From: a virus
Lineage: Duplodnaviria; Heunggongvirae; Uroviricota; Caudoviricetes
Virus record (IMG/VR): IMGVR_UViG_2534681831_000033
Span: 1-11,611 of that record
Length of the DNA: 11,611 bases
Reading direction: 5' to 3' (one strand)
This document shows positions 1 through 9,972 of this stretch, in pieces. Made by a program: the position numbers and the translations under genes. The notes beneath the pieces are model-generated. The model was not told the DNA's origin. It searched no databases and saw only the letters and a program-made list of their open reading frames with translations. Position 1 is the stretch's first letter. Each line of letters opens with the position of its first letter.

Positions 1-284
1 GAGCCGCACTCGGAGAAGTTGCGTCCATTTTCAGGGGAATGGGGTAAAAACCATCAGTGATATGCAGTATCAATCGATAAGATCCATTTAATTGACGGCG
101 GTGCACTCATGGCACGCAGGCAGTGTTGAATAAACATCCGTTTTTGGGTGTTTTTTTAATCTTTTTGGGATTTAAATTCCTATCGATCAAGAAATGAAAA
201 AAGGCCACGCAGTTGCGCAGCCTGATAAACCCTGGTTAAAATCCACACGATAACAACACAACAATATCAGTATCTCATGCTATT

Positions 285-310
285 GCCCGAACCCATTCGG
301 GCATTTTTTA
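285..310 (+). terminator. Rho-independent terminator-like hairpin: 7-bp stem GCCCGAA / TTCGGGC, 4-nt loop, followed by ATTTTTTA
   Basis: Perfect inverted repeat at 285-291 / 296-302 followed directly by a T-run on the + strand. Confidence 0.5.
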
Positions 311-315
311 CCCAT

Positions 316-339
316 AAAAAAGCCCCTCCGGAGAGGGGC
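316..339 (-). terminator. Rho-independent terminator-like hairpin for leftward transcripts: stem GCCCCTC / GAGGGGC, loop CGGA, then T6 on the - strand
   Basis: Perfect 7-bp inverted repeat at 322-328 / 333-339; the A6 run at 316-321 is a U-tract on the - strand. Sits downstream of all - strand genes in the window. Confidence 0.5.
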
Positions 340-670
340 ATGTTTGCATGCACATTCTTTTTCTTGCATGGTGCCGGGTGCCTCCCGGTGAATTCAGTAT
401 CAGCACCTGAATCCGCGATTATCACATATACCTGGTTGCTGATTGCCCCTCCGCACAGGGGGATTCACCATGCAGTAGTATTTTTAATAAACAGCAAATA
501 AAAAAATCAAGCATTATGCAGGCTGTTTCTTTTTATCACCGGCTACAGCAATACCACAATGCCGCAGACCAGCACCCCATCCGCCAGCACCGACATGATT
601 CTGCTGGTGAAATCCACCATCACCACCAGAAACAGCAGGAGTGCAGCCACAGCCAGGCGCAGTTTTACCG

Positions 671-1011
671 TCACTGGTGATTCTCCAGACGAAGACCCAG
701 AACACCGGCAATCTCTTCCAGCACCTTGCGCTCTTCCGGCTCAATTATTTCTGACGTAAACGCGGACAGCGCAGGCTGATTACGCAGTACCTGTTCGATC
801 TTCGATTTCTAGGAAGCCTCACATTCACCATCTGCACAGGCCACCAGGTAGGCAGCATTAATAACCGCCTGTGCCACATCGCGTTTCTCAAACTTTCCTT
901 TTTCCGGTTAACGTGACACACCAATAACTCTTGTCGAAAAAGCCAGCAAGCTGAAAGACCGGTATTCACCGCCGCCAGCGCGTTTACTGTACTGACGCGA
1001 TTTTCGGACAT
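671..1011 (-). pseudogene. Decayed TerB-like (tellurite-resistance TerB domain) gene; reading switches between three frames and has an in-frame TAG
   Basis: - strand translation gives MSENRVSTVNALAAVNTGLSA in one frame, GFFDK in a second, and KFEKRDVAQAVINAAYLVACADGECEAS*KSKIEQVLRNQPALSAFTSEIIEPEERKVLEEIAGVLGLRLENHQ in a third. The ADG...E pattern resembles TerB from memory. Frame changes fall near A-runs. Confidence 0.45.
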
Positions 1012-1874: not shown

Positions 1875-2123
1875 TCAAGAGAGTTTTTTGCGGGCATTTT
1901 GCCAGTCCTTTCGTGCCTGTTCAGACGGGAATAACCCGTAGCCGGAGTTGTATACATAACCACTGGCAACCAGCTCTCTGGCAAGAATGCTCATCAGATA
2001 TCTTGTCGCACCTGTTTTAGCTTCCAACTGTCGTAATGTCTCGCGACCGCTCTGGCGCACAAGTTCGACCACCTGCTCTTTAATTTTTTTCCCGCTCTTC
2101 CTGTGTAAAAACTTTTGCCACAA
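1875..2123 (-). CDS. Hypothetical 82-aa protein, possibly a small helix-turn-helix protein
   Basis: ORF track entry with a TTG start at 2123, preceded by a strong AAGGAGG. Sequence has a helical HTH-like segment TLRQLEAKTGATRYLMSILARELV. Confidence 0.4.
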   Translation of the reverse strand: MWQKFLHRKSGKKIKEQVVELVRQSGRETLRQLEAKTGATRYLMSILARELVASGYVYNSGYGLFPSEQARKDWQNARKKLS

Positions 2124-2161: not shown

Positions 2162-3127
2162 TTATCCCCTGAAACCAGGCGGAATTTCTGTATCCGGTTC
2201 AGAAATATGATTCACACAACGCTGTACAGGTGAACGTCCCAAGCGGATGACCAGTTCGTCCCATTTTTCGCGGAGTTTTGACGGGCTCATGATGTTTTTT
2301 ACCCAGAATGGATCTCGCTGTACCCGACCAAACATTTCGCAAATTTGTCTGTGGCTTCTGCCATCCAGCATCCGCATTGTGCGCACGTCATTGGCCCAGG
2401 CTGTCCAGTTAGGCTCTTTTGGTCGCATGATCTCTCCATCGTCGCTGGCAGCCTGTTCGTAAAGGTTCACGATCCGCCCCCAAATCCACTGCGCACACGC
2501 CAAATCCTCCCTGCTACCCCACTGGCGTTTTTTCGCACTAAACACAACCGCGTCGGGGTTCCGGATTAAAAAATCCTGTTCAGCGGTCTGCGGGTCCGGT
2601 TGCGAAGCTTCCGGACGAAAAGTGTTTTTATTCTCTGTAGTAATCTCTGTTGTATTCTCTGTAAGATCATCAGGCCATTTTGACCCGATGACATTGGGTC
2701 GTTTTGAACCAATGGAGCGTTTCATTTTGACCTCTTCCATCGTGTCATTTTGACCTGATGGAGCGGCGCATTTTGAACCGATGGATTCGTTCAATTTGCC
2801 ACCATCTAAAAGCTCGTTCCCATAGTTGATCGTGTAGAAATTGGTCATATCGCGCTTTGATTTATTGAGCTTTTCACAACGCAAAAGCCCCAGCGTTTTC
2901 AGACTTGCAAACGCGCGCTTTAACGTTGACTCTGACCAGAATGGGAACTGTTCCAGCCATTGTTCCGTTGTGTTGTAAATCCAGCGAACACCATCACATT
3001 CCATGCCGGAATTGGTATCTCTCAACCAGTAATGCAACTGCTGCAACACAATGGCTTCATTTAAGCCAATCTTCATCGCAAGCTGTGTGTTTATAACCAG
3101 TGGGCGTTCAGCAAAAAGAAGGCTCAT
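2162..3127 (-). CDS. Phage replication initiator (lambda O-like replisome organizer) with an N-terminal DNA-binding domain, an iteron-encoded linker and a C-terminal domain
   Basis: ORF 2162..3181 (TTG at 3181). The first ATG is at 3127 (MSLLFAERPLVINTQLAMKIGLNEAIVLQQLHYWL...). Repeated SIGSK peptide motifs are encoded by DNA iterons at 2676-2806, as in lambda O. Alternative start ATG at 3076. Confidence 0.75.
   Translation of the reverse strand: MSLLFAERPLVINTQLAMKIGLNEAIVLQQLHYWLRDTNSGMECDGVRWIYNTTEQWLEQFPFWSESTLKRAFASLKTLGLLRCEKLNKSKRDMTNFYTINYGNELLDGGKLNESIGSKCAAPSGQNDTMEEVKMKRSIGSKRPNVIGSKWPDDLTENTTEITTENKNTFRPEASQPDPQTAEQDFLIRNPDAVVFSAKKRQWGSREDLACAQWIWGRIVNLYEQAASDDGEIMRPKEPNWTAWANDVRTMRMLDGRSHRQICEMFGRVQRDPFWVKNIMSPSKLREKWDELVIRLGRSPVQRCVNHISEPDTEIPPGFRG
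2676..2806. repeat. Six direct iterons (consensus CATTTTGA(A/C)C-n-GATGG, about 23-bp period) within the initiator gene; putative prophage origin of replication
   Basis: Repeat units start at 2676, 2701, 2723, 2746, 2769 and 2792. Flanked at 2620-2665 by an AT-rich segment with three TCTCTGT(A/T) repeats. Confidence 0.7.
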
Positions 3128-3397
3128 AATTCCATCCAGCTTTTTGTTGGTATTGCTGTCGATACGCAAGTTTGAAAGCAATTGCTTTTTCTATAAGTTC
3201 GTCAGTTTCACGATCCACTACGGCAGGATCAGCAAAAAGCAGTCCGGACTCCACCACATCGCCATATTCTTTGTTTAACCCGGCGATCATGTACGTGATG
3301 CTTTTTCCGTCACTAATTTCACGATACAACCTGAAATCATTAATCCGGATAGCCTCCATAATTGCAGGCACTAGCGCCGTGAACTTTTCACGCTTAT
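3108..3397 (-). pseudogene. C-terminal fragment of a YdaT-family (cII-position) gene separated from its N-terminus by the IS insertion
   Basis: After removing the IS and one TAT copy, the - strand frame from 4942 continues in frame through 3397 to the stop at 3108, giving ...KIFERWKAIDTRD|KREKFTALVPAIMEAIRINDF... (about 173 aa). Confidence 0.6.
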
Positions 3398-3451
3398 TGA
3401 ACCGCCCCGGAAATCCTGGAGACTAAACTCCCTGAGAAAGAGGTAAACAGG

Positions 3452-3778
3452 ATGACTAAAAATACTCGTTTTTCCCCCGAAGTCCGTCAGCGGGCGATTC
3501 GTATGGTTCTGGAAAGTCAGGATGAATATGACTCACAGTGGGCGGCAATTTGTTCCATTGCCCCAAAGATTGGCTGTACGCCGGAGACTCTGCGTGTCTG
3601 GGTTCGCCAGCATGAGCGGGATACCGGGGGCGGTGATGGTGGGCTCACCAGCGCTGAACGTCAGCGTCTGAAAGAGCTGGAACGTGAAAATCGTGAACTG
3701 CGCCGCAGTAACGATATCCTTCGCCAGGCTTCCGCTTATTTTGCGAAGGCGGAGTTCGACCGCCTCTGGAAAAAATGA
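3452..3778 (+). CDS. IS3-family transposase OrfA (HTH DNA-binding subunit)
   Basis: 108-aa [26 protein letters not shown]... ending at the A6 run 3770-3775 where orfB begins in the -1 frame. Confidence 0.85.
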
Positions 3779-4665
3779 TGCCACTGCTGGATAAGCTGCG
3801 TGAGCAGTACGGGGTCGGACCGGTATGCAGCGAACTGCATATTGCCCCGTCAACGTATTACCATTGTCAGCAACAGCGACATCATCCGGATAAACGCAGT
3901 GCCCGTGCGCAGCACGACGACTGGCTGAAGAGAGAGATACAGCGCGTATACGATGAAAATCATCAGGTGTACGGTGTGCGTAAAGTCTGGCGTCAGTTGT
4001 TACGGGAAGGAATCAGGGTGGCCAGATGTACAGTGGCACGTCTCATGGCGGTTATGGGACTTGCCGGTGTTCTCCGGGGTAAAAAGGTCCGTACGACCAT
4101 CAGCCGGAAAGCCGTTGCCGCAGGCGACCGCGTAAACCGTCAGTTCGTGGCAGAACGACCTGACCAGCTGTGGGTGGCTGATTTTACTTACGTCAGCACA
4201 TGGCAGGGCTTCGTCTATGTGGCGTTTATCATTGATGTGTTTGCCGGATACATCGTGGGGTGGCGGGTCTCATCGTCTATGGAAACGACATTCGTGCTGG
4301 ATGCGCTGGAGCAGGCGTTGTGGGCCCGTCGTCCGTCTGGCACCATCCATCACAGCGATAAAGGCTCTCAGTATGTGTCACTGGCCTATACGGAGCGACT
4401 AAAAGAAGCCGGATTACTGGCATCAACAGGGAGTACAGGCGACTCGTATGACAACGCGATGGCTGAGAGCATCAATGGTCTTTACAAAGCGGAGGTAATA
4501 CACCGTAAGAGCTGGAAAAACCGTGCAGAAGTGGAACTGGCCACACTAACGTGGGTGGACTGGTATAACAATCGACGATTGCTGGGAAGGCTGGGCCATA
4601 CTCCTCCGGCAGAAGCAGAAAAAGCTTATTATGCTTCCATCGGAAACGATGATCTGGCAGCCTGA
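3775..4665 (+). CDS. IS3-family transposase OrfB (DDE catalytic domain), normally expressed as an OrfAB fusion by -1 frameshifting
   Basis: 296-aa ORF with an rve-type DDE region (WVADFTYV...HSDKGSQY...DNAMAES). Overlaps orfA in the -1 frame. Confidence 0.85.
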
Positions 4666-4707
4666 GTTCACAGATAAAACACTCTCCAGGAAACCCGGGG
4701 CGGTTCA

Positions 4708-4942
4708 TATCCCTAGTGTCGATAGCCTTCCAGCGTTCGAATATCTTCACTCGATTAACGCCAAGCGCTCGCTGATCAACCGCGCCACCTTCATCTGTGA
4801 CACGCTGAACATCGATGTTCGGGCGCTCTTTCAAAGCCCAGAATGATTCAGTGATTAATATCGTCGCCTGCTCCTGTGTCATTCCTGGTCGACATATCCA
4901 GGCATCCAGAGCCTCACGAGCCTGTTCAGGAGTGATTTTCAT
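4708..4942 (-). pseudogene. N-terminal fragment of the IS-disrupted YdaT-family gene
   Basis: ATG at 4942 (MKITPEQAREALDAWICRPG...). The track ORF 4472..4942 reads through into the IS, so residues after about 78 are IS-derived. Confidence 0.6.
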
Positions 4943-5153
4943 TGTTCAACCGCCCCGCCCGCTTCGTCTTACGATATTCGTCATAAACCTTGGGATCATA
5001 CAGAAGCTCGCCGCCAGATGCCTCCTGTAGACGCATCGCGCGACCTTCAGGAACCAGCTCTTGCCATTGAGAAACAGCAGATGGGTCAACGCCAGCAGCT
5101 TTCGCTACTTTGGCTTTCGTACCGTAAAAATTAATTACGTCTGATTTAAACAT
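4926..5153 (-). CDS. Cro-like small regulator of the DicC/YdaS family
   Basis: Track ORF 4926..5180. The second ATG at 5153 (MFKSDVINFYG...) is preceded by GGAGGTGCG and gives 75 aa. Divergent from the repressor gene. C-terminus PEGRAMRLQEASGGEL...YRKTKRAGRLNNENHS. Confidence 0.75.
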   Translation of the reverse strand: MFKSDVINFYGTKAKVAKAAGVDPSAVSQWQELVPEGRAMRLQEASGGELLYDPKVYDEYRKTKRAGRLNNENHS

Positions 5154-5230
5154 CGCACCTCCAATATTGAGTTTTCTCAAAGCTAATCACTCAAGGAATC
5201 TCAAGTCAAGGGTTATTAAGATATCTAAAT
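5154..5230. promoter_or_regulatory. Divergent promoter/operator region between the Cro-like and repressor genes
   Basis: Inverted repeat TTGAG-TTTT-CTCAA at 5167-5180. Direct CTCAAG / TCAAGG repeats at 5190-5211. A TTGACT hexamer on the - strand. Confidence 0.5.
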
Positions 5231-5638
5231 ATGAACGAGAAAACTTTAGGTCAACGCATTAGAGAAAGACGTAAGCAGGTAGGCTTAAGTCAAAACGGTT
5301 TAAGCAAAGCTGCTGGCGTATCTGGCTCATCAATTTCATTATGGGAAAGTGACCATACAGCCCCGCGTGGGCAAAATTTGCATCGCCTCGCCGAGGTATT
5401 GCAATGTTCACCAACCTGGATACTGTTTGGCGACGAGGACAAAACACCAGCTCCCCCTGTTTCACTCGATAGTGCCTTAGACTTATCGGAAGATGAGTTA
5501 GAGATGCTGCGTTTGTATCGCGCACTTCCTAAATCAGAGCAACAAGCACAACTCAGCGAACTCCGCGCCCGCGTTGAGAATTTTAATCGCCTGTTCACCG
5601 AGCTATTAGAGGCTCGCAAACGCAACAAGCATCAATAA
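5231..5638 (+). CDS. DicA-family HTH (XRE-type) prophage repressor, 135 aa
   Basis: N-terminal HTH (LSQNGLSKAAGVSGSSISLWE). C-terminal LQCSPTWILFGDEDK...ALPKSEQQAQLSELRARVENFNRLF resembles DicA of the K-12 Qin prophage from memory. Confidence 0.85.
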   Translation: MNEKTLGQRIRERRKQVGLSQNGLSKAAGVSGSSISLWESDHTAPRGQNLHRLAEVLQCSPTWILFGDEDKTPAPPVSLDSALDLSEDELEMLRLYRALPKSEQQAQLSELRARVENFNRLFTELLEARKRNKHQ

Positions 5639-6804: not shown

Positions 6805-6862
6805 TTTCTGGTGACGTTTGGCGGTATCAGTTTTACTCCGTGACTGCTCTGCCGCCGTTTTT
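6805..6862 (+). ncRNA. dicF: DicF small RNA (ftsZ-targeting sRNA of Qin-type prophages), including its intrinsic terminator
   Basis: TTTCTGGTGACGTTTGGCGGTATCAGTTTTACTCCGTGACTGCTCUGCCGCC followed by a T-run matches my memory of the 53-nt DicF. Lies between the ydfA-like genes and dicB, as in K-12. Confidence 0.8.
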
Positions 6863-7501: not shown

Positions 7502-9484
7502 ATGAGTAAAGTCTTTATTTGCGCCGCTATTCCTGACGAACTGGCAACAAGGGAAGAAGGCGCTGTGGCTGTAGCCACAGCCATTGAAGCTGGCGACGAA
7601 CGCCGTGCTCGAGCAAAATTTCACTGGCAGTTCCTGGAACATTATCCGGCTGCTCAGGACTGCGCTTATAAATTTATTGTCTGCGAGGATAAACCTGGCA
7701 TACCCCGCCCTGCCCTCGATTCATGGGATGCTGAATATATGCAGGAAAACCGCTGGGATGAGGAATCCGCTTCCTTTATTCCGGTCGAACCAGAATCCGA
7801 TCCGATGAACGTCAATTTTGACAAGCTGTCCCTTGAAGTACAGAACGCGGTCCTGGTTAAGTTCGGTACATGTGAAAACATCACCGTTGATATGGCGATT
7901 GACGCGCAGGAATTACTGCAGGAAGACGTTGCTACCTTTGACGGGCATATCGTTGAAGCACTGATGAAAACGCCTGAAATTAACGCTATGTATCCGGAAC
8001 GCAAACTGTTCGCTATCGGATGGGTTAAACACAAATGTAATCCGGGTGCCAAATGGCCCGAAATTCAGGCTGAATTACGTAACTGGAAAAAACGGCAGGA
8101 CGCAGAGCGCAAAGAGACTGGAAAATACACGTCTGTTGTTGATCTCGCCAGCGCCAGAGTCAATCAACAGCACACTGAAAACTCAGCAGGAAAAATCAAC
8201 CCAGTCACTGCCGCCATTTGTCGCGAATACAAGCAGACATGGAAAACGCTGGATGAAGAACTGGCCTACGCTCTCTGGCCTGGTGATGTGGATGCCGGAA
8301 ACATTGACGGCAGCATCCATCGCTGGGCAAAAAATGAAGTTATCGACAACGACCGCGAAGACTGGAAGCGTATCTCGGCATCAATGCGCAAACAGCCTGA
8401 TGCCCTTCGCTACGACCGCCAGACTATTTTTGGCCTTGTCCGTGAACGTCCGATCGACATTCACAAAGACCCTGTGGCACTGAACAAATACATTACTGAA
8501 TACCTGACTACAAAGGGCGTGTTTGAGAATGAAGAAACAGACCTGGGCACTGTTGATGTTCTCCAGTCATCAGAAACACAAACTGATGCAGTGGAAACTG
8601 AGGTATCTGATATCCCAAAAAATGAAACCGCGCCGGAAGCTGAACCATCTGTAGAGCGTGAGGGGCCGTTCTATTTCCTCTTCGCAGATAAGGACGGAGA
8701 AAAATACGGTCGCGCAAACAAACTTTCTGGTCTGGATAAGGCACTGGCTGCTGGCGCCACTGAAATCACAAAAGAAGAATATTTTGCCCGAAAAAATGGC
8801 ACATACACGGGCTTACCGCAAAATGTAGATACCGCTGAAGATTCAGAACAACCAGAGCCGATAAAAGTTACCGCTGACGAAGTAAACAAAATTATGCAGG
8901 CAGCCAATATCAGCCAGCCTGACGCCGATAAGTTGCTTGCTGCATCACGTGGTGAATTTGTTGAAGGGATTAGTGACCCGAATGATCCGAAATGGGTAAA
9001 GGGGATTGAAACCCGCGATTCTGTAAACCAGAACCAGCAAGAATCGGAACAGAACGACCAGAAAGCGGAACAAAACAGCCCAAATACGCAACAAAACGAG
9101 CCAGAAACGAAACAACCTGAGCCAGTAGCGCAACAGGAACCGGAAAAAGTCTGCACCGCCTGCGGTCAGACCGGCGGCGGCAACTGCCCTGATTGTGGCG
9201 CGGTGATGGGCGACGCAACATATCAAGAAACATTCGATGAAGAATATCAGGTTGAAGTTCAGGAAGATGATCCGGAGGAAATGGAAGGCGCTGAACATCC
9301 ACACAAGGAGAACACTGGCGGCAATCAGCATCACAATAGCGATAATGAAACTGGCGAGACGGCAGATCACTCAATTAAGGTGAACGGTCATCAAGAAATC
9401 ACATCCACCAGCAGGACGTGTGACCATCTAATGATCGACCTTGAAACCATGGGAAAAATCCTGATGCCCCGATCATCTCAATAG
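7502..9484 (+). CDS. Large acidic protein (660 aa) in the ydfE/RecE-N-terminal-like position, with a C-x2-C-x7-C-x2-C zinc-ribbon motif; its C-terminus carries the Exo I motif (MIDLETMG) of a DEDDh exonuclease domain and then terminates after a frame change
   Basis: ATG at 7502 preceded by GAGG. Long ORF with acidic and Q/N-rich low-complexity segments. The last 25 residues begin a DnaQ-like exonuclease domain that continues in the -1 frame in ORF 9517..9972. Confidence 0.7.
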   Translation: MSKVFICAAIPDELATREEGAVAVATAIEAGDERRARAKFHWQFLEHYPAAQDCAYKFIVCEDKPGIPRPALDSWDAEYMQENRWDEESASFIPVEPESDPMNVNFDKLSLEVQNAVLVKFGTCENITVDMAIDAQELLQEDVATFDGHIVEALMKTPEINAMYPERKLFAIGWVKHKCNPGAKWPEIQAELRNWKKRQDAERKETGKYTSVVDLASARVNQQHTENSAGKINPVTAAICREYKQTWKTLDEELAYALWPGDVDAGNIDGSIHRWAKNEVIDNDREDWKRISASMRKQPDALRYDRQTIFGLVRERPIDIHKDPVALNKYITEYLTTKGVFENEETDLGTVDVLQSSETQTDAVETEVSDIPKNETAPEAEPSVEREGPFYFLFADKDGEKYGRANKLSGLDKALAAGATEITKEEYFARKNGTYTGLPQNVDTAEDSEQPEPIKVTADEVNKIMQAANISQPDADKLLAASRGEFVEGISDPNDPKWVKGIETRDSVNQNQQESEQNDQKAEQNSPNTQQNEPETKQPEPVAQQEPEKVCTACGQTGGGNCPDCGAVMGDATYQETFDEEYQVEVQEDDPEEMEGAEHPHKENTGGNQHHNSDNETGETADHSIKVNGHQEITSTSRTCDHLMIDLETMGKILMPRSSQ

Positions 9485-9516: not shown

Positions 9517-9972
9517 ATGGGACCGGAATTTAGTAAGACTATCGATCTGGAAACTGCTGGCGGAGTCATTGATCGGAACACCATTAAATGGTGGCTTAAG
9601 CAATCACGCGAAGCGCAATCTGCCATTATGACCGATGAAATCCCGTTAGATGATGCACTGTTACAATTGCGGGAATTTATCGACGAAAACTCCGGTGAAT
9701 TTTTTGTTCAGGTTTGGGGAAATGGAGCCAACTTCGACAACACGATTTTGCGCCGTTCATACGAACGGCAGGGGATCCCCTGCCCGTGGCGTTACTACAA
9801 CGATCGCGATGTACGCACAATCGTTGAGCTGGGGAAAGCCATAGACTTCGATGCCAGAACGGCTATTCCATTCGAAGGTGAGCGCCATAATGCACTTGAT
9901 GACGCCCGTTACCAGGCAAAATACGTTTCAGTTATCTGGCAAAAACTGATCCCGAGTCAGGCTGATTCTTAA
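9517..9972 (+). CDS. DEDDh (DnaQ-like) 3'-5' exonuclease domain fragment with Exo II and Exo III motifs; out-of-frame continuation of the preceding gene
   Basis: Motifs WGNGANFDNTIL and HNALDDARY. The -1 frame is open from 9455 (KNPDAPIISIGAIFFDPQTGD-MGPEF...), joining to ...MIDLETMG. GGAGAT precedes the ATG at 9517. Confidence 0.55.
   Translation: MGPEFSKTIDLETAGGVIDRNTIKWWLKQSREAQSAIMTDEIPLDDALLQLREFIDENSGEFFVQVWGNGANFDNTILRRSYERQGIPCPWRYYNDRDVRTIVELGKAIDFDARTAIPFEGERHNALDDARYQAKYVSVIWQKLIPSQADS

Follow-up and report, generated by a model that had tools for sequence, protein, structure and literature searches.

The window analysed here, a stretch of 11,611 nucleotides, contains a complete insertion sequence that splits a gene of the YdaT family, and the reading that best accounts for it (probability about 0.85) is a recent, lineage-specific insertion of IS1203 into the CII-analogue gene of an already wrecked Qin-like prophage of STEC O111. 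Under this reading an intact IS1203 would have been pasted, by copy-out-paste-in transposition, into the YdaT-family gene at codons 78-79; its host would be a Qin-like lambdoid prophage with DicA/DicC immunity that adjoins rspB in STEC O111; and the insertion would be a late step of IS-driven prophage decay.

The limits of the element can be placed to the base. A preliminary description of this DNA had given it a length of 1310 bp, terminal inverted repeats and a TAT duplication; sequence reading and computation agree on exactly this, for an IS3-family insertion with the following parts.

3398-4707, plus strand: complete IS1203 (IS629 isoform; IS3 family), 1310 bp, placed by its boundaries and by 100% identity to annotated copies
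3395-3397, no strand: left copy of the direct TAT target-site duplication (a single TAT in empty-site genomes)
4708-4710, no strand: right copy of the TAT duplication (likewise single in empty-site genomes)
3398-3422, plus strand: IRL, left terminal inverted repeat (imperfect; complementary to the right end at 22/25 bases, all 13 of the outermost ones among them)
4683-4707, minus strand: IRR, right terminal inverted repeat (complementary to IRL)
3452-3778, plus strand: orfA, 108 aa, HTH_Tnp_1 (Pfam PF01527, E = 2.4e-12)
3775-4665, plus strand: orfB, 296 aa, DDE/rve catalytic domain (Pfam rve, E = 9e-28; NCBIfam transpos_IS3, 316 bits)
3733-3849, plus strand: ALIL pseudoknot, the IS3-family frameshift stimulator (Rfam RF01497, full-length model match, 121.5 bits, gathering score 50)

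The copy starts with TGAACCGCCCCGG and finishes with CCGGGGCGGTTCA, and its termini are TG...CA. Its orfA ends in an A6 run (3770-3775) at which the two frames overlap and which is the -1 frameshift site; a programmed frameshift has been annotated by PGAP in an identical IS1203 copy. To judge from the sequence, all the parts required for transposition (orfA, orfB and the frameshift pseudoknot) are intact.

Many plasmid copies annotated as 'IS3-like element IS1203 family transposase' are 100% identical to this element over all 1310 bp, and 3398-4707 is likewise annotated as IS1203 in strains 8B and 95NR1. The label tracks identity: copies at 99.7-100% are called IS1203, while those at about 96% (one of them on a Shigella plasmid) are called only 'IS3 family transposase', the isoform call being made against annotated database copies. 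The first description of IS1203 came from O111:H-, and it is regarded as an isoform of IS629, with subtypes that lie 4-5% apart (PMC3271280). Given this divergence and the ranking by identity, IS1203 is the precise name, and the earlier designation, IS629-type, is acceptable. The copy resembles IS1203/IS629 of enterohaemorrhagic E. coli in its 1310-bp length, its TG...CA repeats, its 3-bp duplication, its -1 frameshift and its ALIL pseudoknot, and the serogroup, O111, is that of the first description of IS1203 (PMC3271280, PMC6602927). There is nothing in the element itself that differs; only its insertion site is particular, being found in three complete genomes.

The gene that is interrupted runs on the minus strand and is now present as two separated parts, the first of which continues into the IS.

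4709-4942, minus strand: 5' part of the YdaT-family (cII-position) gene, codons 1-78 (by translation; PGAP 'protein YdfX' pseudogene)
3108-3397, minus strand: 3' part of the same gene, codons 79-173 and stop, overlapping the start of the O-like gene by 20 nt (by translation)
4472-4942, minus strand: chimeric ORF, 78 native residues and 78 residues from the IS antisense strand (by translation)

Deletion of 3398-4710 in silico yields an unbroken 173-aa ORF on the minus strand, from an ATG at 4942 to a stop at 3108-3110, as had been predicted for removal of the IS and one TAT. In its present state the gene encodes a 156-aa chimera with its stop at 4472; the 3' fragment in 95NR1 is annotated 'toxin YdaT family protein, missing N-terminus', and the insertion already appears in RefSeq annotation as an IS between two pseudogene fragments. 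The break falls after residue 78, which is beyond the conserved N63/R70/W71 helix and ahead of the conserved L86-P88-A89-I90 helix and the C-terminal helices. The truncated or chimeric product, which on the predicted structure would keep the first helices and lose the L86-P88-A89-I90 helix together with the C-terminal helices, is probably non-functional.

On either side of the interrupted gene lie the immunity region and the replication initiator of the prophage.

4926-5153, minus strand: dicC (cro-like), first gene of the rightward early operon (NCBIfam DicC, 165 bits; Pfam P22_Cro, E = 3e-16)
5154-5230, no strand: divergent dicA/dicC promoter-operator region (by sequence reading; promoters putative)
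5231-5638, plus strand: dicA-type repressor, 135 aa, in which no domain besides the HTH was matched (NCBIfam DicA, 239 bits; Pfam HTH_3)
2162-3127, minus strand: O-like replication initiator, 321 aa, downstream of the insertion (PHROG_391 'replication initiation O-like', E = 1.7e-92)

The order dicC, ydaT-like gene, O-like gene is shared by the window, intact relatives and phages. A candidate pR can be read on the minus strand (TTGACT at 5209-5204, an 18-nt spacer and TAGCTT), although it falls below the threshold of a consensus scanner, and an iteron array with a spacing of about 23 bp is present inside the O-like gene at 2668-2799. DicF RNA (6806-6857, by Rfam) is followed by dicB, ydfD, an exonuclease gene, xis and int, adjoining chromosomal rspB; it is because of this set (DicA/DicC, DicF, dicB, ydfD, xis, and int beside rspB) that the element is classed as a Qin-like lambdoid prophage. 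The IS does physically part the replication module from the Cro-side promoter, as the preliminary description had it, since it lies between dicC with its promoter (4926-5230) and the O-like gene (2162-3127).

Membership of the split gene in the YdaT family, as first proposed, is borne out by the restored 173-aa protein, which passes the Pfam threshold for YdaT_toxin (PF06254; 26.1 bits, cutoff 21) and for which profile and fold matches agree; all of its close homologues carry PF06254. Its PHROGs assignment is PHROG_163, 'CII-like transcriptional activator' (E = 8e-40). A direct phmmer search of the restored protein against PDB sequences returned non-significant matches only (8bt1 at E = 0.13); a family profile of 25 sequences reached both 8bt1 (E = 1.5e-26), which is CP-933P YdaT, and 3c4r (E = 2.4e-25). 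The AlphaFold2 model used for the fold search was built on this 25-sequence alignment (pLDDT 87.8), and a model made with 8 close homologues (pLDDT 52) was left out of that search. Foldseek placed 8bt1_C and 3c4r_C on top with a probability of 1.00 each (target TM-scores 0.63 and 0.57), at E-values of just 4e-3 and 1e-2, and the third match had a probability of 0.18. By these two methods the predicted model fits the YdaT fold, in which an N-terminal POU-like HTH domain is followed by a long helix. Full-length 173-aa forms are plentiful in E. coli, where they fill clusters of 1548 and 1093 member sequences; the family is small, since an exhaustive profile search gives only 80 representatives.

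The YdaT of CP-933P binds DNA as a tetramer and is a functional equivalent of lambda CII (PMC9986795, PMC5917428); its DNA binding needs oligomerisation, and its predicted role as a toxin has not been borne out (PMC9986795; PMC5917428). It is the only member known to bind an inverted repeat as a tetramer and to activate a pRE-like promoter (PMC9986795). The label 'toxin' originated with a prediction algorithm, is disputed and has no experimental confirmation (PMC9986795, PMC5917428), and lambda CII when overexpressed is toxic too, though it is no toxin (PMC5917428). With the label algorithmic and disputed, the studied members being CII equivalents, and PHROG_163 matched as strongly as it is, the earlier suggestion that the insertion silenced a toxic YdaT-type product loses its footing; because the gene occupies the cII position, the name 'toxin YdaT family protein' is not to be taken literally. 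A Pfam scan of the restored protein gave YdaT_toxin only, without sequence similarity to lambda CII, and for YdaT proteins such similarity is undetectable (PMC9986795). The kinship to lambda CII is one of analogy, by position and presumed function, and not of sequence homology.

As with the YdaT proteins of CP-933P (8bt1) and Rac, the gene immediately follows a cro-like gene and its product matches YdaT_toxin above the cutoff; profile and fold point to 8bt1/3c4r, and the Arg-Trp pair of the recognition helix (R70, W71) is conserved. The protein differs in that the sequence identity is just 25-30% or so and in its greater length (173 aa, with an extra C-terminal helical region); moreover, DNA binding and activation are known for CP-933P YdaT, whereas the present subfamily is known from sequence and a model. 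The same gene is shortened in other E. coli, repeatedly and independently, in the forms P0030, P0033, P0050 and P0052. P0030, a 96-aa truncated form that is common in E. coli and that we take to be the product of K-12 ydfX, ends near residue 94 through a separate event, while the gene considered here is broken at residue 78 by an IS that is still present and excisable. The ydfX pseudogene of K-12 Qin lies beside dicC in the same dicA-dicC immunity region, and it is its name that PGAP has given to the 5' fragment.

For the empty site, positions 2898-3397 were joined in silico to 4711-5210, giving a probe of 1000 nt with one TAT. At least 38 O111 genomes contain a gap-free 100% match to this probe, and 1499 genomes match it at 80% coverage or more; the O111 annotations give an intact gene for a 'toxin YdaT family protein' at this site. 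It also matches the free-living phages mEp460_ev081 (99.8%) and HannyBb (99.5%), in which an intact gene is annotated, and in HannyBb a 'CII-like transcriptional activator' is among the features annotated beneath the match. In strain 8E the two flanks of the window overlap by exactly TAT, that is, by a single copy. Alignment of the flanks to related prophages that lack the IS, a check that had been proposed at the outset, thus confirms the empty site: relatives carry one TAT, and the restored ORF is kept both in O111 genomes and in phages.

The occupied site is rare. When 240 nt across the left junction were searched in 5426 complete E. coli genomes, the junction was spanned in three of them: O111:H8 strain 8B, from the USA, and 95NR1 and 95JB1 from the Adelaide outbreak of 1995. 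Among O111 genomes with the prophage the insertion is present in 3 of 37, and the others keep an identical intact gene. The whole window aligns to strain 8B end to end and differs by two single-base indels, one of which was located in a run (A5 versus A6) where it breaks an 823-aa exonuclease ORF; the window must therefore stem either from another assembly or from a strain very closely related to 8B. An assembly artefact was considered and rejected, as the junction is identical in three independent complete assemblies.

The state of the rest of the prophage argues that it was damaged before IS1203 arrived. Strain E2855, whose ydaT site is empty, has an IS91 in the tape-measure gene of the same prophage, and this IS91/tape-measure junction is found in 37 O111 genomes. 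A second lesion, a deletion from DUF977 to rusA, is shared by the window and each of the four O111 loci that were read at the junction; in E2855 and 8E, again with empty ydaT sites, a truncated DUF977 is joined through an IS629/IS1203-type copy to a rusA fragment upstream of Q. (The fragment was placed by alignment within the annotated rusA of an intact relative.) The DUF977 and rusA sequences lie about 6 kb apart in that relative, which shows the junction between the two to be a deletion. Strains 8B, 95NR1 and 95JB1 share both the IS91 and the DUF977-to-rusA lesions, and these three carriers also lack everything from the right end of IS91 through the head (portal, capsid), terminase and lysis genes; 95NR1 and 95JB1 alone have the junction of this late-gene deletion, which removes more sequence in 8B and the window. 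Because the older lesions occur in 37 genomes, or in all loci read, against three for the ydaT insertion, the prophage was already defective before the insertion.

What the insertion would do to expression can be judged from the transcript expected. Transcription from the dicC side would enter the IS antisense to the transposase genes, and the stretch from the stop of the chimera at 4472 to the start of the O-like gene amounts to 1344 untranslated nt. The antisense-IS RNA is C-rich (393 C versus 314 G across the IS): the C/G ratio is at least 1.5 in ten of the overlapping 78-nt segments along it, compared with mostly 0.5-0.9 in the flanking native phage mRNA. This is a textbook setting for Rho-dependent polarity: Rho would probably end the dicC-side transcript within the C-rich stretch, which would leave less O-like initiator and less Q, and transcriptional polarity on the downstream O-like initiator is plausible. 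In addition, the IS breaks the 20-nt overlap between ydaT and O, so that any translational coupling between the two would be lost. In 95JB1 an IS1203 insertion has been reported for which a polar effect on a methyltransferase gene was inferred (PMC6602927). Consensus scanning of 2900-5400 for promoters and terminators detected no sigma-70-like site at its threshold, and the terminator-like hairpins found there were weak and at chance level (3 versus 2.3 expected in shuffled sequence); the scan is insensitive, having missed even the expected pR, and is uninformative either way on polarity or on outward promoters.

It had been proposed that the insertion acts as a polar block of the replication module and so immobilises the prophage. 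The location of the IS, with the dicC-side promoter on one side and the O-like gene on the other, would suit this proposal, as would the length of the untranslated C-rich stretch and the lost ydaT-O coupling, but the distribution data largely refute it: the IS91 in the tape-measure gene occurs in 37 O111 genomes, those with an empty ydaT site included; the DUF977-to-rusA deletion, which is also older than the insertion, is present in both of the empty-site relatives read there; and the lysis, terminase, portal and capsid genes are missing in all three carriers. With particles impossible whether IS1203 is present or not, immobilisation by the IS itself is decidedly improbable. Another conceivable effect has the opposite sign. 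Certain IS elements create outward or hybrid promoters, and one at the IRL end, which abuts the intact 3' gene fragment and the O gene, could drive O and Q independently of DicA. Against this, the transposase promoter points the opposite way, hexamers in the IRL flank reach by eye only about 3/6 + 3/6, and the scan just described, insensitive as it is, gave no sigma-70-like site; such a promoter is the most improbable of the explanations considered.

The insertion might instead have been selected, as adaptive domestication, because it silences an early-right operon that is harmful when DicA fails, either through YdaT or through runaway in-situ replication from O and its iterons. Toxicity of ectopically expressed Rac YdaT has been reported for K-12 (see the discussion in PMC5917428), O and its iterons remain intact, and the recurrent, independent truncations (P0030, P0033, P0050 and P0052) could be taken in the same sense. 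Neutral decay, however, predicts recurrent truncation equally well, CII overexpression gives toxicity without a toxin (PMC5917428), and 34 of the 37 O111 genomes with the prophage have left the gene identical and intact; we regard selection of this kind as improbable. A CII-type function is needed only for establishing lysogeny (PMC9986795), so that its loss is irrelevant to an established prophage. Since particles were already impossible and the CII-type function is unneeded once lysogeny is established, the insertion was probably selectively neutral or nearly so, a conclusion for which parsimony and the condition of the prophage are the only arguments.

A second site in the window bears on the turnover of IS copies in this prophage.

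1877-1878, no strand: DUF977'-to-'rusA deletion junction, at which relatives hold a second, TSD-less IS629/IS1203-type copy that is missing in the window

E2855 reads ...GCTCAT[IS]AGAGAG... at this site, with no target duplication, and the window reads GCTCA|AGAGAG; the native sequence of the site in the intact relative is GCTCATCG. Because E2855 keeps one more native base, the window has the derived state. What is missing from it is 1311 nt (one T and the IS), bounded by TCA...TCA, and this junction fits excision of the IS by microhomology-mediated end joining. The IS-excision enhancer (IEE) promotes microhomology-mediated end joining in vitro and O111:H8 is one of the serotypes in which it is found (PMC9943667, PMC9397093). 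In the lineage where IS1203 entered ydaT, the TSD-less copy at 1877/1878 has apparently been lost as well. Movement of that copy into ydaT was considered and rejected, as the copy at this site differs from the one in ydaT at 28 (E2855) or 44 (8E) positions.

Excision by IEE of IS3-family elements is exemplified by lacZ::IS600 in O121:H19. The present case is similar in that IS1203 is also a member of the IS3 family, that O111:H8 is reported to carry iee, and that the neighbouring 1877/1878 junction resembles an excision product; it differs in that excision was seen with lacZ::IS600, whereas the ydaT::IS1203 copy is known from sequence alone. Since the 3-bp duplication is perfect, precise excision would restore the ydaT gene. 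If IS copies in this prophage turn over quickly and IEE is active, ydaT::IS1203 could be a reversible off-switch of the early-right operon, as in lacZ::IS600, and not a dead end, although we consider this unlikely.

Taken together, these results describe an element, a kind of gene and an effect that are all known already, the effect being an insertional knock-out with probable polarity. Insertions of IS1203/IS629 in EHEC prophages are a well-documented strain-level polymorphism, to which the insertion here adds little. It does serve as a lineage marker that joins the source of the window with strain 8B from the USA and with the Adelaide outbreak strains of 1995, and it provides a worked example of how one prophage has been eroded stepwise, by IS91, by two or three IS629/IS1203 copies, by adjacent deletions and by one apparent excision.

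Across the O111 lineage, IS629/IS1203-type elements have entered this part of the prophage at more than the ydaT site. Exactly at the deletion junction that joins DUF977' to 'rusA, the O111 relatives carry a copy of this type that lacks a target-site duplication and is preceded by a native T. Comparison of window positions 1877-1878 with the E2855 locus L003 (17290-17330 and 18600-18640) and with L006 (3131-3160) revealed that the T and the IS (1311 nt together) are absent from the window, and that the absent segment has TCA...TCA microhomology at its limits. Positions 1877-1878 appear to be the scar of a lost IS, and the arrangement fits excision of the type linked to the IS-excision enhancer (IEE) and microhomology-mediated end joining (MMEJ). 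The E2855 prophage has a third IS1203 insertion site (L003 15057-16270), which corresponds to about window 875-880, between Q and the DUF3927 region; no IS is present there in the window. The breakpoints of whole-window matches suggest that many other O111 genomes also have an IS at this position. Together with the other two, this makes three sites in the lineage where an IS629/IS1203-type element has inserted, all between about 875 and 3400 in window coordinates, a span of ~2.5 kb.

Alignment of the ydaT copy (window 3398-4707) with the E2855 copy from the DUF977'-to-'rusA junction (L003 17315-18624) reveals 28 differences. They are concentrated near the two ends, in ~255 bases at the start and ~160 at the finish, with roughly 900 bp in the middle identical; the alignment suggests that IS629/IS1203 copies are mosaic through recombination between isoforms.

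In 37 O111 genomes the tape-measure gene is interrupted by a different element, IS91 (in E2855, L007 9670-14740). 95NR1 (L004 14094-18909) and 95JB1 have lost their head, terminase, and lysis genes through an IS91-adjacent deletion. This deletion is larger in 8B and the window, where it stops about 540 nt short of the DUF3927 gene; in L002 it lies to the left of window position 1.

Two 1-nt indels separate the window from 8B. One, placed by coordinate offsets, is somewhere in 1-543. The other is an A5 run at 9454-9458 (A6 in 8B and 95NR1), which frameshifts an 823-aa prophage exonuclease gene, leaving a 660-aa ORF at 7502-9484 and a second stretch at 9517-9972. This shorter run could be a genuine mutation, or else an error in sequencing the homopolymer.

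Three small RNAs match the window:
248-309, plus strand, AgvB, a prophage-borne anti-sRNA (Rfam, 96.5 bits)
310-499, minus strand, sRNA STnc100 (Rfam, 148 bits)
6806-6857, plus strand, DicF antisense sRNA, in the leftward operon (72.5 bits)

The AgvB and STnc100 matches are direct neighbours, and both lie downstream of the gene for the Q antiterminator. Across the immunity region, dicB and ydfD lie downstream of DicF in the leftward operon, and this DicA-controlled division-inhibition module appears intact.

Many other E. coli have the same YdaT-family gene cut short elsewhere along its length (proteins P0030, P0033, P0050, and P0052); examples of the truncated forms are one of 96 aa, with 199 member sequences, and one of 133 aa, in 35 contigs. 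In other forms, C-terminal halves are joined to a foreign N-terminus (MNFVM.CLVPPGDVNQLTIN). The comparison indicates that this gene has decayed repeatedly and independently.
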